64,000 bases of DNA from Dictyostelium discoideum (taxonomy: Eukaryota), in NCBI GenBank assembly GCA_000004695.1, contig CM000153.2, positions 992,001 through 1,056,000 of the forward strand, in the 5' to 3' direction. A program made the position numbers and the translations under genes. Position 1 is the first letter of the stretch. Each line of letters opens with the position of its first letter. Shown piece after piece: positions 8,722-24,773 of this stretch. Under the pieces are notes generated by a model, which saw only the letters and a program-made list of their open reading frames with translations, made no database searches and had not been told where the DNA came from.

Positions 8722-10269
8722 TTAAATAAAATGTTTTTCATATGAGAATAAACTATGTACAGAGCCTTCAACTTGAGCGGCAGCGGTTCTAACTTCGAAT
8801 CTAACTTTACCACCATAAACACTTTCACGTAAATTTGTGACAGAATTACAACCAAGATCTTGAAGACCATGTTTAATACCTTGAATGAGATATGGGACGA
8901 ATTTCTTTACGGAACCTTTATCTACAACACTACCACTAACACCTTGAGCGACTTTAATTTTATCGGTTTCACTAAAGTATCTTTGATCACCACCTTTAAC
9001 CATTGCTTCCAATGAACCCATACCACGATATTTCTTTAAACGCATACCATCCTTGTAGAAATAATCACCTGGAGCCTCTTCGGTACCGGCCAACATACTG
9101 CCCATCATTACAGAGGAAGCGCCCAATGAGAGACCTTTAATGATATGACCGATGGTACGAATACCACCGTCGGCAATGATTGGTACATTGTATTGACTAG
9201 AGTAGAGGGCACATTTGAATACGGCGGTGGCTTGAGGACGACCACATGCCATAACCTCTTGAGTGGTGCAAATGGAACCAACACCCATACCAACTCTAAG
9301 ACCATCTACACCTGCTTGGATTAAACTTTCACATTGAGAAGTGGTGACTACATTGCCACCAATAACATCGATCTTTGGATAGTTTCTCTTGATGAATCTA
9401 ATCATTTCACGTTGATAGGTTGAGTCACCTTGAGAGGAATCTAAAATAACAACATCGACACCAGCATCACTGAGTGCGGCCAAACGTTCTTTATCGGTTT
9501 CACGAGTACCCAAAGCGGCACCGACCAAGAGTTTCTTATTTTCATGGTCTTTGGTTGCCATTGGGAAATCTCTATTCTTTACAAGATCATCACGTGATGC
9601 CAATGCTACGAGCTCACCTTTATCATTTACAATTGGTAACTTTCCTTTCTTACAACTCTTTAGGATGGAATTTGCCTCCTCGAGTGTACAATTTTGTTGA
9701 CCAGTGATGAGATCGGTGGTCATTACCTCGGAGAGGGTGGTGGAACGATCCTTGATGAAATCGGTATCACGACTTGTAACAATACCCACTAATTTGCCTC
9801 CGATTCTACCAGTGTCTGTAATTGGAATACCAGAGAACCCATACTTTTGTTTGATCATATCCACATCGGATAACTTGTGTGTTGGTGATAAAACGATTGG
9901 ATCTGTGATAAAGCCATTCTTAAATCTTTTCACCTTTTTAACTTCAACAACTTGCTCTTCAACGGTATTGTTGTAATGAATGATACCAATACCACCCAAT
10001 AATGCCATATTGATTGCCATGAGATGTTCTGTAACTGTATCCATTGGTGAACTAACTAATGGAGCATTCAAACTGATATTCTTGGTTAATTTGGTCTTTA
10101 ATGATACATCATCGGCTGAGAAATTAATATGTCCTGGTAACATAATTAAATCATCATATGTATATCCATGTCTTTGTTGAAATAATTCAAAACAATCGAA
10201 TCCATCGACAAACCATTCGGATTTATATTCACTATTTGTACCTTGTAAAATTTTATTGATTTTTTCCAT
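8722..10269 (-). CDS. impdh: Inosine-5'-monophosphate dehydrogenase (IMPDH), single exon, 515 aa.
   Basis: The MEKINK start is an ATG at 10267-10269. I recognised a CBS-pair region and the catalytic loop [22 protein letters not shown]. The MGSLEAM and GGDQRYF motifs are present, the length is typical, and the frame is uninterrupted. Confidence 0.9.
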
Positions 10270-13689: not shown

Positions 13690-15306
13690 TTATACACGAA
13701 TTTTAGCTGGTTTATCTTTTGGTTTAATGAATAAAAAGATAGCAGTAAGAACAGCCATAACAAAGACACCAAAGATGTAGACAACCCAGAACCATTTTAA
13801 GATTTTAAGATTTTTAACTGCAGTTTCAAAGAGTGAATTGATTGCAGTTGTTGAAGTGAATTGAGAGAAAGCCATCGTACAGAAATGAGTGATTGAGACG
13901 GAAGTGATAAGGATTAAACCAACATTGAAGAGGAAAGCATTCATCATGGTATTACCAACCCTCATAGGATGAATTGGGAAGAGGAAGAAAAGACGTAACC
14001 CAAATTTGAAATTACCCTTGACAACACAAAACAATAAATAGAATGAGAGTAAACCATAGACAATGACACCAAGGAAACCCCAAGCATTGTTCAATGCAAT
14101 GACCAAACTGTTTAAGAATGGGTGGAATGGCTCTGGTGCGGTGATCATGTAGATGATGATGTGAAGCAACCATCCAAGACTGACGCCCAATGCAACGAAG
14201 CCCCCAAAGAACTGGGCGTAGTAAAAGATGACCTTGCCACCTTGTCTCTTGTAAGAGATCTTCAAACGCTCGTAATCCTCCTCCAACAAGAAAATAGCTT
14301 GACGGAAACGATTGTAATTCTTTCTATCACGTTTGCTCATGATGCCACCCGATGTACGTGACTGGATGGTCTTGCCGATCTCCACTAACTCAGTGGCACG
14401 TTCACCAATCTTCTTCTTTCTTTCCAAATATTTGTCATATGGTATACGTTGTGGACGATTCTTAAAGTCGCCAATCATATCGAATGGCAAGGCGACCAAG
14501 CCGATACCACCGAAAATGATGAATAACAACCAACCAAAGAATGCAACCATTGTGATGATGAAAAGTGCGATGGACACACGGAATTGTAAAAATTCTTTAT
14601 CCAAACGATATTCTACATACTCCGATCCGTCTCCTAAAAGATCTGGATTTCCAGGATCGAATCTGATCCTCTCGTCATTTCCACCAATGATTGCTGCTAT
14701 CTCTGGTAATGCATATGTTATATTACTAATATCTGACATGAATGGATAGTTTAGAACTTGGAATCTACCCAATACAACAATGGTTGGAATCTCTGCCACA
14801 CCAAAGAATACATATAAAACAATGGTTAATGCTGTAAATGCAAATAGAATTGCAAATGTACCCTTGAATGCTCCTGCAATTTGACTACCTGCTCCTGGAT
14901 CTGCTTCTTCTGATTCATAGAAGAACATTGCAAATGGGCAAATAACAACTGCAAATACTGCCACTGCAATATATATAATAATCCATAATATATCCATAGG
15001 AAATCCACCACTTCCTCCATCATTTGCTACATCCAATGGTAACATTAAAATACTTGTTGCTGCTAATGTTAAACCTAAAATCTATAATTATAAAAAATAA
15101 AAAGTTATTAGATATTTTTCAGATATTTTTATTTTAAATTTAAAATAAAAATGGAAAAAAAAAAAAAAACTTACAACAATAATTTTCGGGAAATAGGCAA
15201 CATTTTTGTCATCTGGATGTTGGAAATATGCAATTAAATACAAACTTGCTAAAACTACAAGTGCTGGTATAACAACAGCAATAATAATTAAGAAGACGTT
15301 AACCAT
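13690..15306 (-). CDS. LMBR1-domain multi-pass membrane protein (LMBR1/LMBD-like), complement(join(13690..15081,15175..15306)).
   Basis: Exon 1 reads [44 protein letters not shown] from ATG 15304-15306 and is followed by a GTAAGT donor. The acceptor tatAG is at 15082-15083. Exon 2 is in phase 0, [23 protein letters not shown].... I count about 9 TM helices, and the overall pattern resembles LMBR1 family proteins. Confidence 0.7.
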
Positions 15307-15969
15307 CCTCTTTTATTTTATTTATTATATTTATTTTTTTCTTTTTTTTTTTTGTATTATTTATATTATATTCGTATGTGATTATTTTTATTTATTAATT
15401 TATTTTTTTTTTATTTATTTATTTTAAAAGTACGGAAAAAAAAAAAAAAAAAGATTTTATTTGTTGATGAGTTTGTGTGTGTTGGTTTTGATTTTTTTTT
15501 TTTTCTTTTTTTTTTTTTTAATTTAAAAAAAAAAAAAAAATTAAAAAATTATATAATTAAATAAATAAAATGATTGAAATAATAGACAAAACAAAAAAAA
15601 AAAAAAGAAAAGAAAAAAAAAATAAAAAAAAAAAAAGATTAATTAAAAAAATATAAAATACCCAGTGGTAGAGAAAAAAAAAAAAAAAAAAAAAAAATAA
15701 AAAAAAAAATAAAAAAAATTTTTTTATACCAGAGCCTAAAAAAAAAAATTAAAAAAAAAATAAAAAAAATTTAAAAAAAAAAAAGACCCCACGTTTTTTT
15801 TTTAAAAGTTATAAAAAATACAACGTGGTCGTCTGTAAGACAATTGTAATTCGATGAAAATTTTTGTGGTTTTGGGAATTAATAAAAATGAAAATAATTA
15901 AAAGAGGAGGAAATAAAATATACATTGCAAATATTACAAAATAAGTGTTAAATTGAGAATTTTATAACA

Positions 15970-16018
<49 letters not shown>

Positions 16019-17390
16019 GAATATTTTTTTTTTTCCCAAAATTAGTTAAAAACCAATAATTAAAATATTCAAAAATGTAAGTGGAGAAAAAAGGAATATT
16101 AAAAAAAAAGATGGTTTGGTTAAAATAGAAAACCAAAGATCACTTAGTTTTAGCAAAATTGGGATAAGTTTTAAAACTTTTTTTTATTTTTTAAAAATAA
16201 ATATTACTATATTTATTTTTTTCCAACATTTAAATCTATTTTAATCCAGTCCCTCCTTTTTATAATAAAATTTTTAAGGCTAAAAAGATTTAATTCTTGT
16301 TATAATAACTCTCCTTTTTAAATTAAAAGGAAATATAAAAAAAAAAAAAAAAAAAAAAATTTTTAGGCATTAATTATTTTATTATAAAAAAATATTATTT
16401 AACTTTTTTAAATTTTCCTATCTCATTTGAGCCCAGCTTTTCAAAGTAATAAATTTAAAATTATTTATTATTTTTAATTTTTTTTTTTTTTTTTTTCTTT
16501 TTCAAATAATGGTTTGAAAAAAAAAAAGAATTACAAAATGGTAAATAAAAAAAAAAAAAATAATAATAGTTTAAAAAAAGATAATTAAAAAAAAAAAAAA
16601 AGGATTAGATAGAATATTTATAACTTTTTTTTTTATTCAAAATATATTATTTTTATTTTTATTTTTTTTAAATTTTTTATTTATTTTTTATTTATTTTTT
16701 ATTAATTTTTTTAAAAAAAAAAATTTTTAAAAAAAAAAACACACAAAGAAATTATTTATTTTATATTTTTAGAAACCCCATTTAAAAACAGTGTAAATAT
16801 TTAATTATTTAATATATAAATATCTTTCTTATAAAATAATTATTTTTTTTTTTTTTATTTTTTAATTTTTTTATAGTTTTATTGATAAAGTTAACTTTAA
16901 TTTATTTTATTTTTTTATTTTTTTTTTATTTTTTTTGTTTAAGTTAACCTTATTTTTTTATTTATTTTTTTTTTGACGCGTGACCTTACATGAAATAACA
17001 CCACCAACATGTTGTCACGTACCCGGATTTCATTTTAGAAATCATAAAAAACGGCCAACCGCTGTTATTTAATTTTTTTTTTTTAATTTTTTTTTTTTTT
17101 TTTTTTTTTTTGGATTTTTTTTTTTTTTTTTTTAAAAATTATTTTTTTTTTTTTTTTTATTTTTTTTTTATTGGTTTCTTTTCACCAAATTTCAATAAAA
17201 TTTTTTTAATTTTTTATTTTTTATATATTCCTAATAAAATTTTTTTTTTTTTTTTTTATTAAATCAAAAACTCTCAATACCAATAGATTTTATATCATTA
17301 CATTCCTATAGATATTATATTCAAAACCAAAAAGTCAAAAGGTTTTTTTTTTTTTTTTTTTTTCAGTAACATTAACAAATAAAGCAAAAT

Positions 17391-18770
17391 ATGTTTTCAG
17401 GAGCATTGAATTATATGAAGGGTTTAGTAGGTACCAACGAAAACTTACAAGTCGAAGAAAGTGGTGATAATAAAGGTGATATTGAACCAGAGCAAAGAAA
17501 GGGTTTACTCAAACAATTATCATCATATGTTGGTAAAGATATTACATCTTTAATCTCATTACCAGTTTGGATTTTCGAACCAGTATCATTCTTACAAGTT
17601 ATGTCCGAACCATTACAATATAACGCTTTATTATCTAAAGCCTCAAAACAAGATAGCGAATTTTTATGTTTAGCTTATTTAGCTGCCTTCAATTGTGCAT
17701 TATATAGTACTGCTGTTAGAACAAGTAAGTTTTATTAAATATTATTAATTATATTTTGAAAAATATAATAGTAAAATAAAATAAAGAAAAAAAAAAAAAA
17801 AAAAAGAAATACTAAAAAATTTTTTTTTTTTTCTTTTTTATTTCTTTTTTTCTTTTTATTTTTATTTTTTTTTTTTTTTTTAAAAAAAAAAATAGGAAAA
17901 CCATTTAATCCAATTTTAGGTGAAACCTTTGAAATTGTTGATAAAAAAGGTGAATTTAGATTCCTTGCAGAACAAGTTAGTCATCACCCACCAATTGGTG
18001 TATCAGAGACAATTTCAGAAGATTATACTCTTCAATTAGAAACATTATTGAAATCCAAATTCTATGGTAACTCATCAGAGGTTGAAATTGATGGTACCAA
18101 TCATTTCTTCAATAAGAAGACCAACCACCATTACACATGGAATCATTTGGTAACTTGTTGTCATAACATTATCATTGGTTCATTATGGTTGGATCATTAT
18201 GGTGATTTAGTCATCGAAAATCACACTACCGGTAGCAAGGCAGTACTCAAATTTGCTAAATCTGGTTGGTTAGGTGCCGGTCGTTATGGTGTCACTGGTG
18301 AAATTGTGGATTGTGAAGGTGATGTTAGATACAGAATCACTGGTAAATGGAATGAATCCATTCAATTATTCCAAGTCATGGATAATGGTTCATCCTCTAC
18401 CACTTCCACTTGTCTTTGGGAAGCCAGCAAAGAACCAATCAATAATAAATTTTTATTCCCAAGATGGGTCGAAGAAAACGTTATTGATCTCAACGATGAA
18501 TACAAAAAGATATTACCAGTCACCGATTCTCGTCTTAGAGCAGATCGTATCGCTTTAGAAGAAGGTAACTTGGATGTCGCAGCTAAAGAAAAACACAACT
18601 TGGAAGAGAAGCAAAGAGAAGACAAAAGACAAAGAGTTGCTGAAAACAAAGAATGGGAAACTGCTCAATTTAAAAAAGTCGATGATGCTAAATTTGGTTA
18701 CAGATGGAATTATTGTGGTAATTATTGGGAAGAAAGAGAAGAAAGAGTTAAAGCAGCAGCTTCAAATTAA
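17391..18770 (+). CDS. Oxysterol-binding protein (OSBP/ORP) family member, short form, join(17391..17724,17896..18770).
   Basis: Exon 2 contains the OSBP fingerprint KPFNPILGETFE...EQVSHHPPI. Exon 1 ends aca+a, followed by a GTAAGT donor at 17725. The acceptor AG is at 17894-17895. The split codon a+ga = Arg preserves the frame to the TAA at 18768-18770. Confidence 0.85.
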
Positions 18771-19157
18771 TAAAAACAATAATAATTATAATATTTTAAT
18801 CGTAAACAATTTATTCATTCAATTTCCGCTGTTATTAATTAATATATAAATAAAAAAAAAAAAAAAAAACAAAAAAATAAAAAATAATAAAAAACATTTT
18901 AAAAAAAAAAAAAAAATAGTGAATATCTCCATTCATAACTTTTTATTAAAATTTTAAATGCTTTAAGATTTTTCCAAACTAAGATCAAATAAGTTAAATA
19001 TTTAAATACTTCACAAAATTAAAATTATCTGATTTTATTAATCGGCAAATAAACAAATCCTTTAAAATAAAAAAGATTTATTTTCAAGAAGAAAGTGGAG
19101 TTTTTTTTTTCTTTTTATTTAGTTGATATTTACAAATACTATAATACATTTAGAATT

Positions 19158-19491
19158 TTAATTGCAACCACAATCTGGATGTAAAATTGGAGTTGTAATA
19201 TTGCCAACAGTGTTTAATACTGAACCAACAATAACACCAGTACCAAATAAAACTCCTCCAACAAGATTTCCAACTGTATTTCCTAATGCCGGACTACAAG
19301 AACAACATTGAATTGAGTTTAATGATTGAAGTGATGATGATGAAAATGAGGCAATATTGGATTTTGATGATGATTTAATATTTCCAATTGATGAGATTGA
19401 GGCTAAATAATTAAATTGATTTTAGTATTTAGGTAAAAAATAAATTAAAAATTTAAAATTAAATTTAAATGTAATTACCTAAGATTGTCAT
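19158..19491 (-). CDS. hssA/2C/7E-family small Ser/Gly-rich protein, about 85 aa, complement(join(19158..19402,19479..19491)).
   Basis: Exon 1 is ATGACAATCTTAG, followed by a GTAATT donor. The acceptor atttAG is at 19403-19404. The protein reads [85 protein letters not shown]. It is about 97% identical at the nucleotide level to the + strand copy at 20257. Confidence 0.75.
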
Positions 19492-19954
19492 TTTTTAGGT
19501 TTAATTGTTTTAGTAAGAAAAAAAAATAAAAAAAAAAAAAAATGTTTTTAAAGGTAAAGTATTCACTTTAAAAAAAAAATTATAAAATTTTTTATATATA
19601 ATATTAAATCAATTTTTTTTTAATTTATTACAAATTATTTGAAAAATAGTTTTGGAATTTTAGATAATGGATGATATCATTTTAGTGATAAAATAATAAA
19701 TAAAGATTTATTTATTTAATTTTAACTATATGAACGGTTTATAAAAAATAGTTCAAATTAATCTTTCAAATAGAGATTTTAAAAATGGCCTTTAATCTTA
19801 TTTCCCTACAAATATAAAAATATTATCGGTCAAAAAAAAAATATTAAATAGCTATATCTTTTTTTTTCTTTTATTGAAATGTTATATTAAAAAAATTAAT
19901 CAATTTTTTTTATTATTTTTTGTATAGAAAACAAATTTATATGTTTTCCAATCT

Positions 19955-19990
<36 letters not shown>

Positions 19991-20256
19991 AGTAACAACC
20001 CCTTCTAACACAGATTTTTTATTAAATAAGTAAGATTAACACAGATGAAAAAACTAATATAGATATCTAAAATTCAAATTTGGATTTTACTAAATTTAAA
20101 TTTTTTTTAATAATTTTCACATTTTACTCTTTTTTAAATATAATAATAATTATATGTTTCAAAATTAGTATAAAAAAATTTTTATTTTCCAATCATTATC
20201 AAATATTAGCCAACTCTTTAAAGCATAAATAGAAAATTGAAAAAAAAAAAAAAAAA

Positions 20257-20584
20257 ATGACAATTTTAGGTAACTATATATATATTTTATAATTCTTTTA
20301 TTTAATAATTTCTAATTTCTTTAAATATTATTTTAGCCTCAATCTCATCAATTGGAAATATTAAATCATCATCAAAATCCAATATTGCCTCATCATCATC
20401 ATCATCATCAAGTCAATCATTAAACTCAATTCAATGTTGTTCTTGTAGTCTGGCATTAGGAAATACAGTTGGAAATCTTGTTGGAGGAGTTTTATTTGGT
20501 ACTGGTGTTATTGTTGGTTCAGTATTAAACACTGTTGGCAATATTACAACTCCAATTCTACATCCAGATTGTGGTTGCAACTAA
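20257..20584 (+). CDS. hssA/2C/7E-family small Ser/Gly-rich protein, join(20257..20269,20337..20584). It is a paralogue of the gene at 19158-19491.
   Basis: ATGACAATTTTAG is followed by a GTAACT donor. The acceptor ttttAG is at 20335-20336. Compared with the minus-strand copy it has a one-codon Ser insertion and three substitutions. The MTIL(G/A)...CGCN architecture is typical of the family. Confidence 0.75.
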
Positions 20585-20993
20585 AATCGAAAATAATATA
20601 TATATTTAATTAAATTAATTCAATATATAATTATTAAATACATAAAAGTGTATAAAAAAAAAAAAAAAAAAAAAAATTTAAAAAAATAAAATAATAATAT
20701 AAATTTTATATTATTAATAAATGTTTCTTTTTTAAATATAAAAATATAATATTATTGTGATTAAATTTAACAGAATAAATAATAAAATAATTAAAGAATT
20801 TGTTTTTGATTTTTAGGTTTTAAAATAGAAAAATTATTTCTATCTTTTTTTTTTTTTGGTTTCTTTTTTTATTATAATCATTATGACAATATTAATTTTT
20901 ATATATATATGAGTATTAAAAGTTTTTAATTGGGTAATATTATAATATTATAATAAAATTGAAATCCAATGATAGAAAATATTAATACTATCA

Positions 20994-24773
<3,780 letters not shown>

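Follow-up and report, generated by a model that had tools for sequence, protein, structure and literature searches.

An old head-to-head pair of hssA/2C/7E-family genes in Dictyostelium whose second exons are probably homogenized by gene conversion

The window, meaning the whole 64,000-nucleotide stretch of Dictyostelium discoideum DNA analysed here (23% G+C), carries two small genes that lie head to head, a minus-strand copy at 19491–19158 and a plus-strand copy at 20257–20584, each with two exons and encoding 85 and 86 amino acids, respectively. The gene models were derived from local alignment of both sense strands combined with explicit splice models, with the region 18800–21000 being read. 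In the minus copy, a 13-nt first exon (19491–19479; ATGACAATCTTAG, with its ATG at 19491) is followed by a 76-nt GT..AG intron (19478–19403; GTAATT...TTTAG) and by exon 2 (19402–19158), which closes with a stop codon at 19158–19160. The plus copy comprises a 13-nt exon 1 (20257–20269; ATGACAATTTTAG, ATG at 20257), a 67-nt GT..AG intron that carries the conserved motif TTTCTAATTT (20270–20336) and exon 2 (20337–20584; stop at 20582–20584). A spacer of 765 bp (19492–20256) separates the two ATGs. Immediately to the left of the pair, and outside it, lies osbH (oxysterol-binding protein 8, DDB_G0283709; plus strand, 17391–18770), which served as the synteny anchor; the D. discoideum AX4 protein Q54QP6/EAL65621 falls within its 90%-identity cluster, and a published expression table places DDB_G0283709 osbH next to the LMBR1-like gene DDB_G0283707 (PMC6198379). 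A third copy was sought in the 64-kb window by tblastn and none was found; scans of the window for tRNAs and Rfam families returned no matches.

The two second exons form the arms of an inverted repeat, recovered by a repeat finder as two overlapping pairs of segments: 19148–19349 with 20393–20594 (202 nt, 95%) and 19332–19407 with 20332–20407 (76 nt, 97%). All remaining inverted matches in the surrounding 6 kb are of low complexity and reach at most 73%. In a codon-aware alignment of the two coding sequences, the 258 aligned bases show eight mismatches and a single indel of 3 nt (96.9% identity), and the copies find one another by tblastn with an E value of about 1e-43. At the protein level they differ by F24S, by L29S together with one extra serine, and by P42L. 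These results agree to the base with the coordinates, two-exon models, divergent layout and gap of about 765 bp given in an initial annotation of this DNA, and they return the same three substitutions and one-codon serine indel that it had listed. Its figure of roughly 97% identity for the coding parts holds as well. Alignment of the arms, which that annotation had proposed as a way of locating the duplication breakpoints, showed that identity stops near the exon 2 acceptor at one end and near the stop codon at the other. High identity is thus limited to exon 2: between the window copies, introns match at 70%, upstream sequences at 61% and downstream sequences at 60%, values that represent the background for AT-rich DNA.

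Both products belong to the hssA/2C/7E family (also sigN, HssA/B-related or PF05710), as had been proposed from the sequence. The PF05710 profile covers each of them in full (positions 1–90 of 90), with scores of 85.9 and 81.4 bits (E values of 3.6e-24 and 8.6e-23) against a gathering cut-off of 21.4 bits; the profile is called 'Coiled' in Pfam and has been described as the Dictyostelium-specific 'HssA/B-related domain' (10.64898/2026.03.01.708701). Vicente et al. described 96 sigN-related genes in 2008, 89 of which share the family hallmark of a 13-nt exon 1, a single intron and an exon 2 that contains the rest of the coding sequence; their products are shorter than 120 amino acids, rich in serine, cysteine and glycine but poor in lysine and arginine, and carry a putative transmembrane segment in the C-terminal half, located at residues 54–76 in SigN1 (PMC2257962). 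The pair resembles this family (PMC2257962) in its PF05710 domain, its exon–intron structure, its size class and its Ser/Gly/Cys-rich composition (Ser 20–23%, Gly 12%, Cys 6%, Lys 2%, Arg 0%). Its products have one hydrophobic, glycine-rich segment at residues 48–66, where Kyte–Doolittle hydropathy peaks at 1.72 (19-residue window), and they end in CGCN. The family-type 13-nt exon 1 is present in 13 of 14 copies from seven genomes, the exception being a 14-nt homopolymer variant in D. dimigraforme.

Searches of collections of 5.8 billion and 1.84 billion proteins yielded credible relatives in Dictyostelium only, namely P0001 of D. dimigraforme, P0079 of D. cf. discoideum, and P0082 and P0083 of D. 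purpureum; the non-credible matches are long repetitive proteins. A D. purpureum relative bears the UniRef name 'HssA/2C/7E family protein'. A homology search with the whole protein gave a single match (D. dimigraforme P0001, 75% identity), and a search of representative proteins with the exon 2 translation gave five. Neither protein was present in exact form in a collection of 15 billion sequences.

Two catalogued genes fit the pair. In Additional file 1 of PMC2257962, sigN101 (DDB0185642) is listed on chromosome 4 with exons of 13//244 nt, an intron of 75 nt and a product of 85 amino acids, and sigN102 (DDB0185643), also on chromosome 4, with exons of 13//247 nt, an intron of 66 nt and a product of 86 amino acids; the two have consecutive DDB identifiers and a catalogued identity to SigN1 of 60–62% (PMC2257962). 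The exon 2 and intron sizes determined here equal these entries plus one nucleotide, and the protein lengths are the same. The minus copy therefore fits sigN101 and the plus copy sigN102, in a match made by attributes (chromosome, lengths and adjacency of identifiers) and not by sequence. Membership in sigN Group 1 or Group 2, whose genes lie in two clusters on chromosome 2 and encode products of 87–89 amino acids that are about 95% identical within each group (PMC2257962), is ruled out by the osbH neighbour, the chromosome 4 entries and the 60–62% identity to SigN1. Unlike those clusters (PMC2257962), the pair lies on chromosome 4 and is the sole representation of the family in the 64-kb window. 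The genes, the family, its 13-nt first exon and the occurrence of head-to-head pairs within it have thus been in the literature since 2008. A search for publications on sigN101 and sigN102, their DDB identifiers or the DDB_G identifiers near osbH found nothing relevant; among the rows listed in the expression supplements of PMC6198379, the neighbours DDB_G0283707 and DDB_G0283709 are present, identifiers of the form DDB_G028371x are absent, and the pair has no entry.

What the literature says about function applies to the family. [quoted passage not shown] Proposed roles accordingly range from secretion through matrix or adhesion to an RNA-level effect. Developmental, sigN-type expression, which the initial annotation had brought up, is a statement that the literature makes for the family (cAMP-induced, prestalk or cup, depending on the subfamily); for the present pair it is putative. 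AlphaFold2 modelling of the exon 2 peptide from a three-sequence alignment gave a mean pLDDT of 36.9 and a pTM of 0.16, too low for the model to be informative.

The D. dimigraforme locus (L001) was reached through the protein match P0001; with osbH orthologues as handles, orthologous loci were then fetched from D. discoideum (L006 and L002), D. cf. discoideum (L009 and L010), D. citrinum (L005 and L011), D. firmibasis (L004) and D. purpureum (L003). The D. dimigraforme locus is syntenic with the window, with osbH on the left and a gene of about 1050 amino acids on the right, and besides the annotated copy it contains an inverted one that had no annotation. Head-to-head pairs between osbH and the same ~1050-amino-acid gene are likewise found in two further assemblies of D. 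discoideum, in both D. cf. discoideum genomes, in D. citrinum ACTFIU (hereafter FIU) and in D. firmibasis. Every genome examined other than D. citrinum ACTFIV and D. purpureum has, at the orthologous site, a pair with a 13-nt exon 1 of the same type; in D. purpureum no pair lies beside osbH, but synteny breaks there, so that its absence gives no date for when the pair arose.

These genomes reveal two different histories within the same genes. In exon 2, the two copies of one genome are 91–99% identical, whereas copies from different species are 75–86% identical. The introns, the 250 nt upstream and the 150 nt downstream behave in the opposite manner: copy against copy within one genome they are 60–70% alike, which is background, whereas against the same-side copy of closely related genomes of the D. 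discoideum clade they reach 76–97%. The minus intron of the window, for example, is 85% identical to the minus intron of D. discoideum FIW and 70% identical to that of its own paralogue. It is orthologous to minus-side introns elsewhere and not to the plus intron; the plus intron is correspondingly orthologous to plus-side introns, except in D. citrinum FIU, where its orthologue is the minus-side intron.

Neighbour-joining trees (200 bootstraps) built separately for exon 2, for upstream sequence plus intron, and for downstream sequence show the same division. The exon 2 tree pairs the copies by genome, with bootstrap values of 100 in D. firmibasis, D. dimigraforme, FIZ and D. citrinum, falling to 88 in FIY and to 66 in the window, whereas the two copies of D. 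discoideum FIW form no pair of their own; the tree is poorly resolved within the closely related D. discoideum strains. By contrast, the upstream-plus-intron and downstream trees each separate a minus-side clade from a plus-side clade, with bootstrap values of 100 for each within the D. discoideum clade. Synonymous divergence follows exon 2, with dS of 0.03–0.22 between paralogues (0.056 for the two window copies) and 0.27–0.71 between species. Lineage-specific indels are common to both copies, among them the missing CC of FIZ and the segment CGGCGSGP of D. firmibasis. In seven of seven genomes, the borders of near-perfect identity lie a few nucleotides from the acceptor on one side and from the stop codon on the other. 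Homogenization in D. dimigraforme and D. citrinum extends over just the 3' two-thirds to three-quarters of exon 2, which looks like a partial conversion tract, although this is suggestive only. The grouping of exon 2 by genome and of introns, promoters and 3' flanks by position thus points to concerted evolution, with conversion confined to exon 2.

The high coding identity and the low dS of the window copies had initially been taken to indicate either a recent inverted duplication or ongoing gene conversion. That the pair arose recently in the D. discoideum lineage, its 97% identity simply reflecting youth, is very improbable: a young duplicate would share introns and flanks, yet identity drops to background at the borders of exon 2, the pair sits at the same site in four species, and the introns and flanks of either side have orthologues of their own in the other species. 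With the pair at an orthologous site in at least four species, and with introns and flanks whose orthology follows position, the duplication cannot be a recent one. The clustering of exon 2 copies by genome might also be expected had every species doubled a single ancestral gene independently, in the same place and orientation. Such parallelism is harder still to credit, because it would need at least five identical events and because the side-specific non-coding clades extend across species and place both sides in the common ancestor already. An old duplication whose copies remained alike through purifying selection alone, with no gene conversion, would be in keeping with protein constraint: the products are under moderate purifying selection, with dN/dS between species of 0.22–0.41. 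However, synonymous sites have been homogenized as well (dS of 0.03–0.22 within genomes and up to 0.71 between them), and selection cannot make paralogues co-vary in lineage-specific substitutions and indels, so that we regard this possibility, too, as very unlikely. Of the two processes named at the outset, it is gene conversion with which the trees, the dS values and the tract boundaries agree.

Misassembly is a known risk with inverted repeats, and the initial annotation had named an artefact of this kind, an inverted collapsed repeat, as a possible reason to dismiss the pair. A chromosome-level D. discoideum assembly made independently (L006, CM142510) matches the window at 99.73% over 4.5 kb, with both copies present and identical products, and the same arrangement occurs in seven other genomes, each with differences of its own. 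Moreover, the arms differ at eight sites and by an indel, their introns are distinct, and both genes were already in the 2008 catalogue compiled from the reference genome (PMC2257962). An assembly artefact, whether a collapsed or a mis-joined repeat, is contradicted by these observations and can be set aside almost with certainty.

The one genome in which sides are exchanged, D. citrinum FIU, suggests that recombination between the arms has a second outcome. The FIU spacer aligns to all other spacers only when reverse-complemented, with local alignment scores of 41–96 reversed as against 26–33 forward. Against the four D. discoideum-clade genomes the values are 67–96 and 28–30, respectively. 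A shuffle null, run for the window–D. citrinum pair, gave 20.5 ± 2.4 with a maximum of 34.5. The orientation of the D. firmibasis spacer is itself weakly resolved (52 versus 40). In FIU the minus copy accordingly carries the intron and promoter of the plus-side type, and vice versa, and the 3' flanks have kept their usual sides. A reversed spacer between unmoved 3' flanks is the expected product of a crossover between the two inverted second exons. The breakpoints of the flip cannot be placed within exon 2, whose first 60 nt are uninformative; the rearrangement may alternatively be an inversion with breakpoints within a few nucleotides of the stop codons. In the second D. citrinum strain, ACTFIV, the pair has been deleted. 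A GC-richer sequence of about 540 bp, for which no Pfam match was found, has taken the place of everything between the minus stop codon and the final ~60 nt of exon 2 in the plus copy, a remnant that is still readable.

Taken together, we assign a probability of about 0.85 to the following reading: the window contains an old pair of paralogues, fitting sigN101 and sigN102, whose second exons are homogenized by gene conversion and whose spacer is occasionally flipped by crossover. The inverted duplication occurred before D. discoideum, D. citrinum, D. dimigraforme and D. firmibasis separated, and near-identity would have been kept since then by repeated intrachromosomal conversion between the inverted exon 2 sequences, in a tract bounded by the intron acceptor and the stop codon. 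Promoters, exon 1 with the intron, and 3' flanks have meanwhile evolved independently and diverged to background. The same recombination would sometimes resolve as a crossover between the arms, turning round the promoter-bearing spacer as in FIU, and such a flip would be tolerated because either promoter would then drive an almost identical exon 2. The comparisons document the anatomy of the locus, its family membership, the orthology, the concerted evolution, the flip and the deletion; we infer the conversion events from the phylogeny, and the recombination mechanism, the promoter elements and the role of the protein are likewise putative.

The spacer itself was footprinted in a seven-genome alignment. 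Its best-conserved non-coding block (19637–19683) lies about 150–190 nt upstream of the minus ATG, is found in seven of seven genomes (flipped in FIU) and gives tblastx matches; it includes TAGATAAT and, at 19671, the perfect palindrome ATGATATCAT, and is a candidate regulatory element. Near the plus copy, a putative TATA box (AGTATAAA; plus strand, 20167–20174) is conserved in seven of seven genomes and is followed by a conserved, presumably promoter-proximal block (20188–20217, plus strand; CCAATCATTATCAAATATTAGCCAACTCT); further plus-side conserved blocks, around 20040–20068, include the palindrome TAGATATCTA. In its middle (~19700–19990) the spacer is rich in A/T runs and poorly conserved. 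The 250 nt upstream of each ATG are, at 61%, no more alike than background, and the spacer is non-palindromic. The G-box bound by GBF (KGKGKGK) is absent from the spacers of the window and of three other D. discoideum-clade genomes, and occurs once or twice in those of D. citrinum, D. dimigraforme and D. firmibasis.

The initial annotation had seen in this intergenic region a candidate bidirectional promoter. One shared element that co-regulates both genes would suit their divergent arrangement, 765 bp apart, and the GATATC-centred 10-bp palindrome found on both sides of the spacer, and shared palindromic regulatory regions are indeed known from the head-to-head pairs of sigN Group 2 (PMC2257962). 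However, the two halves of the present spacer are unlike, its conserved blocks lie near each gene with a poorly conserved middle, D. discoideum lacks the GBF G-box there, and the pairs of Group 1 are similarly devoid of palindromic structure (PMC2257962). A single bidirectional promoter is therefore possible but doubtful, being neither shown nor favoured by the comparison of sequences. A conserved block near each gene, the dissimilarity of the halves and the absence of the G-box in the D. discoideum clade suggest instead two separate, non-palindromic proximal promoters, which is the arrangement of sigN Group 1 pairs; the pairs of Group 2 share a palindromic one. The pair thus differs from the Group 2 pairs in its non-palindromic spacer (PMC2257962) and, in D. 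discoideum, from the promoters of both groups, for which GBF G-boxes have been reported (PMC2257962), in having none.

Drosophila Hsp70 inverted pairs have likewise undergone long-lasting concerted evolution. Duplicated gene pairs of mammals offer a further parallel (PMC2720389), with paralogues closer to one another than to their orthologues, sharp boundaries and persistence across speciation. Unlike both the mammalian pairs (PMC2720389) and Hsp70, the tract described here corresponds to one small exon, belongs to a lineage-restricted family and is accompanied by a flip and a deletion. The palindromes of the human Y chromosome, such as P6, also combine arm-to-arm conversion with rare inversions of the spacer by crossover (PMC3723533). 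Their arms measure kilobases to megabases and are more than 99.9% identical (PMC3723533), whereas the arms of this autosomal pair in an amoeba measure 245 nt, the length of one exon, and are 91–99% identical.

A more far-reaching view would see in the exon 2 arms a small natural recombination switch, in which recurrent flips by crossover, of which FIU would show one instance, exchange the pairing of promoters and copies and conversion keeps flipping neutral or useful. We consider this unlikely. If it were true, the head-to-head architecture that recurs in the hssA/2C/7E family would be selected, as a palindrome-style means of self-repair for very small, redundant genes, and would not be a relic of duplication. 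That one D. citrinum strain has lost the pair is in line with redundancy, as is the reported lack of a phenotype on deleting 13 sigN genes.

For annotation the result has little value, the genes and their family having been published. Concerted evolution is a known process and this is an ordinary case of it, to which the boundaries of exchange and the details of the flip make a small but clean addition: a compact, well-bounded example from Dictyostelium in which a tract of 245 nt, equal to one exon, can be followed through at least four species together with a flip and a deletion. Its implication is one of caution for the hssA/2C/7E family, with its ~100 members. Duplications dated from coding identity may appear recent when the pairs concerned are old, and the same caution applies to family trees built from exon 2 alone.

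In the D. citrinum ACTFIU assembly (L005, 7647-9023), alignment with the window (19158-20584) places the spacer between the two genes in the orientation opposite to that found in all other genomes. The inverted part comprises both promoters, both first exons and both introns, and the 3' flanks of the pair retain the orientation seen elsewhere. This arrangement fits a crossover between the two inverted arms formed by exon 2. In the D. citrinum ACTFIV assembly, the pair is deleted (L011, 7621-8210); in its place lie ~540 bp of GC-richer (33%) sequence holding a broken ORF that ends in ...VPRGVDVEIERTGLTDSEGESESEEEQTQ and has no Pfam match, and the final ~60 nt of exon 2 of the plus copy survive as a remnant.

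Both D. dimigraforme copies (L001, 9453-9783 and 10396-10727) carry a 1-nt homopolymer indel (at TTTTT in exon 1, which becomes 14 nt, and GG to G in exon 2); these indels are either assembly errors or marks of pseudogenes. The N-terminus of the NCBI model P0001 from this species is artificial because of the homopolymer indel, and the minus copy is without annotation. Automatic annotation called neither copy in five recent NCBI assemblies (L002, L005, L006, L009 and L010), so small hssA-family genes with two exons systematically escape annotation, and this is the reason that protein searches gave almost no matches. Only in D. firmibasis are both copies annotated, at 88 aa each. One of the five, L002, labelled D. 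discoideum ACTFIW, is 89–94% identical to window 17000-21500, compared with 99.7% for L006, another D. discoideum assembly, and may belong to a cryptic species or to a strain that has diverged deeply.

The LMBR1-like gene (DDB_G0283707; window 13690-15310, compared with L001 4719-6393, L004 462-4717 and L003 2603-6528) and osbH lie on opposite strands in D. discoideum, D. cf. discoideum and D. citrinum, and share a strand in D. dimigraforme, D. firmibasis and D. purpureum, the last two each having two tandem copies of the LMBR1-like gene; comparison of these loci points to a local inversion together with a change in copy number. No hssA-like sequence adjoins osbH in D. purpureum (L003 9271-9544), where the right-hand neighbor is a different, myotubularin-related gene; synteny is therefore broken exactly at this point beside osbH. 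Further left in the window, the 42% G+C peak at 9–10 kb is due to an intron-less IMP dehydrogenase ORF (8722-10269, minus strand, 515 aa).

Within the spacer, the most conserved non-coding block (window 19637-19683) contains a perfect palindrome, ATGATATCAT, at 19671, and a plus-side palindrome, TAGATATCTA, lies at 20060 (in 20056-20068). Both are centered on GATATC and largely conserved between species, and they are possible factor-binding sites.
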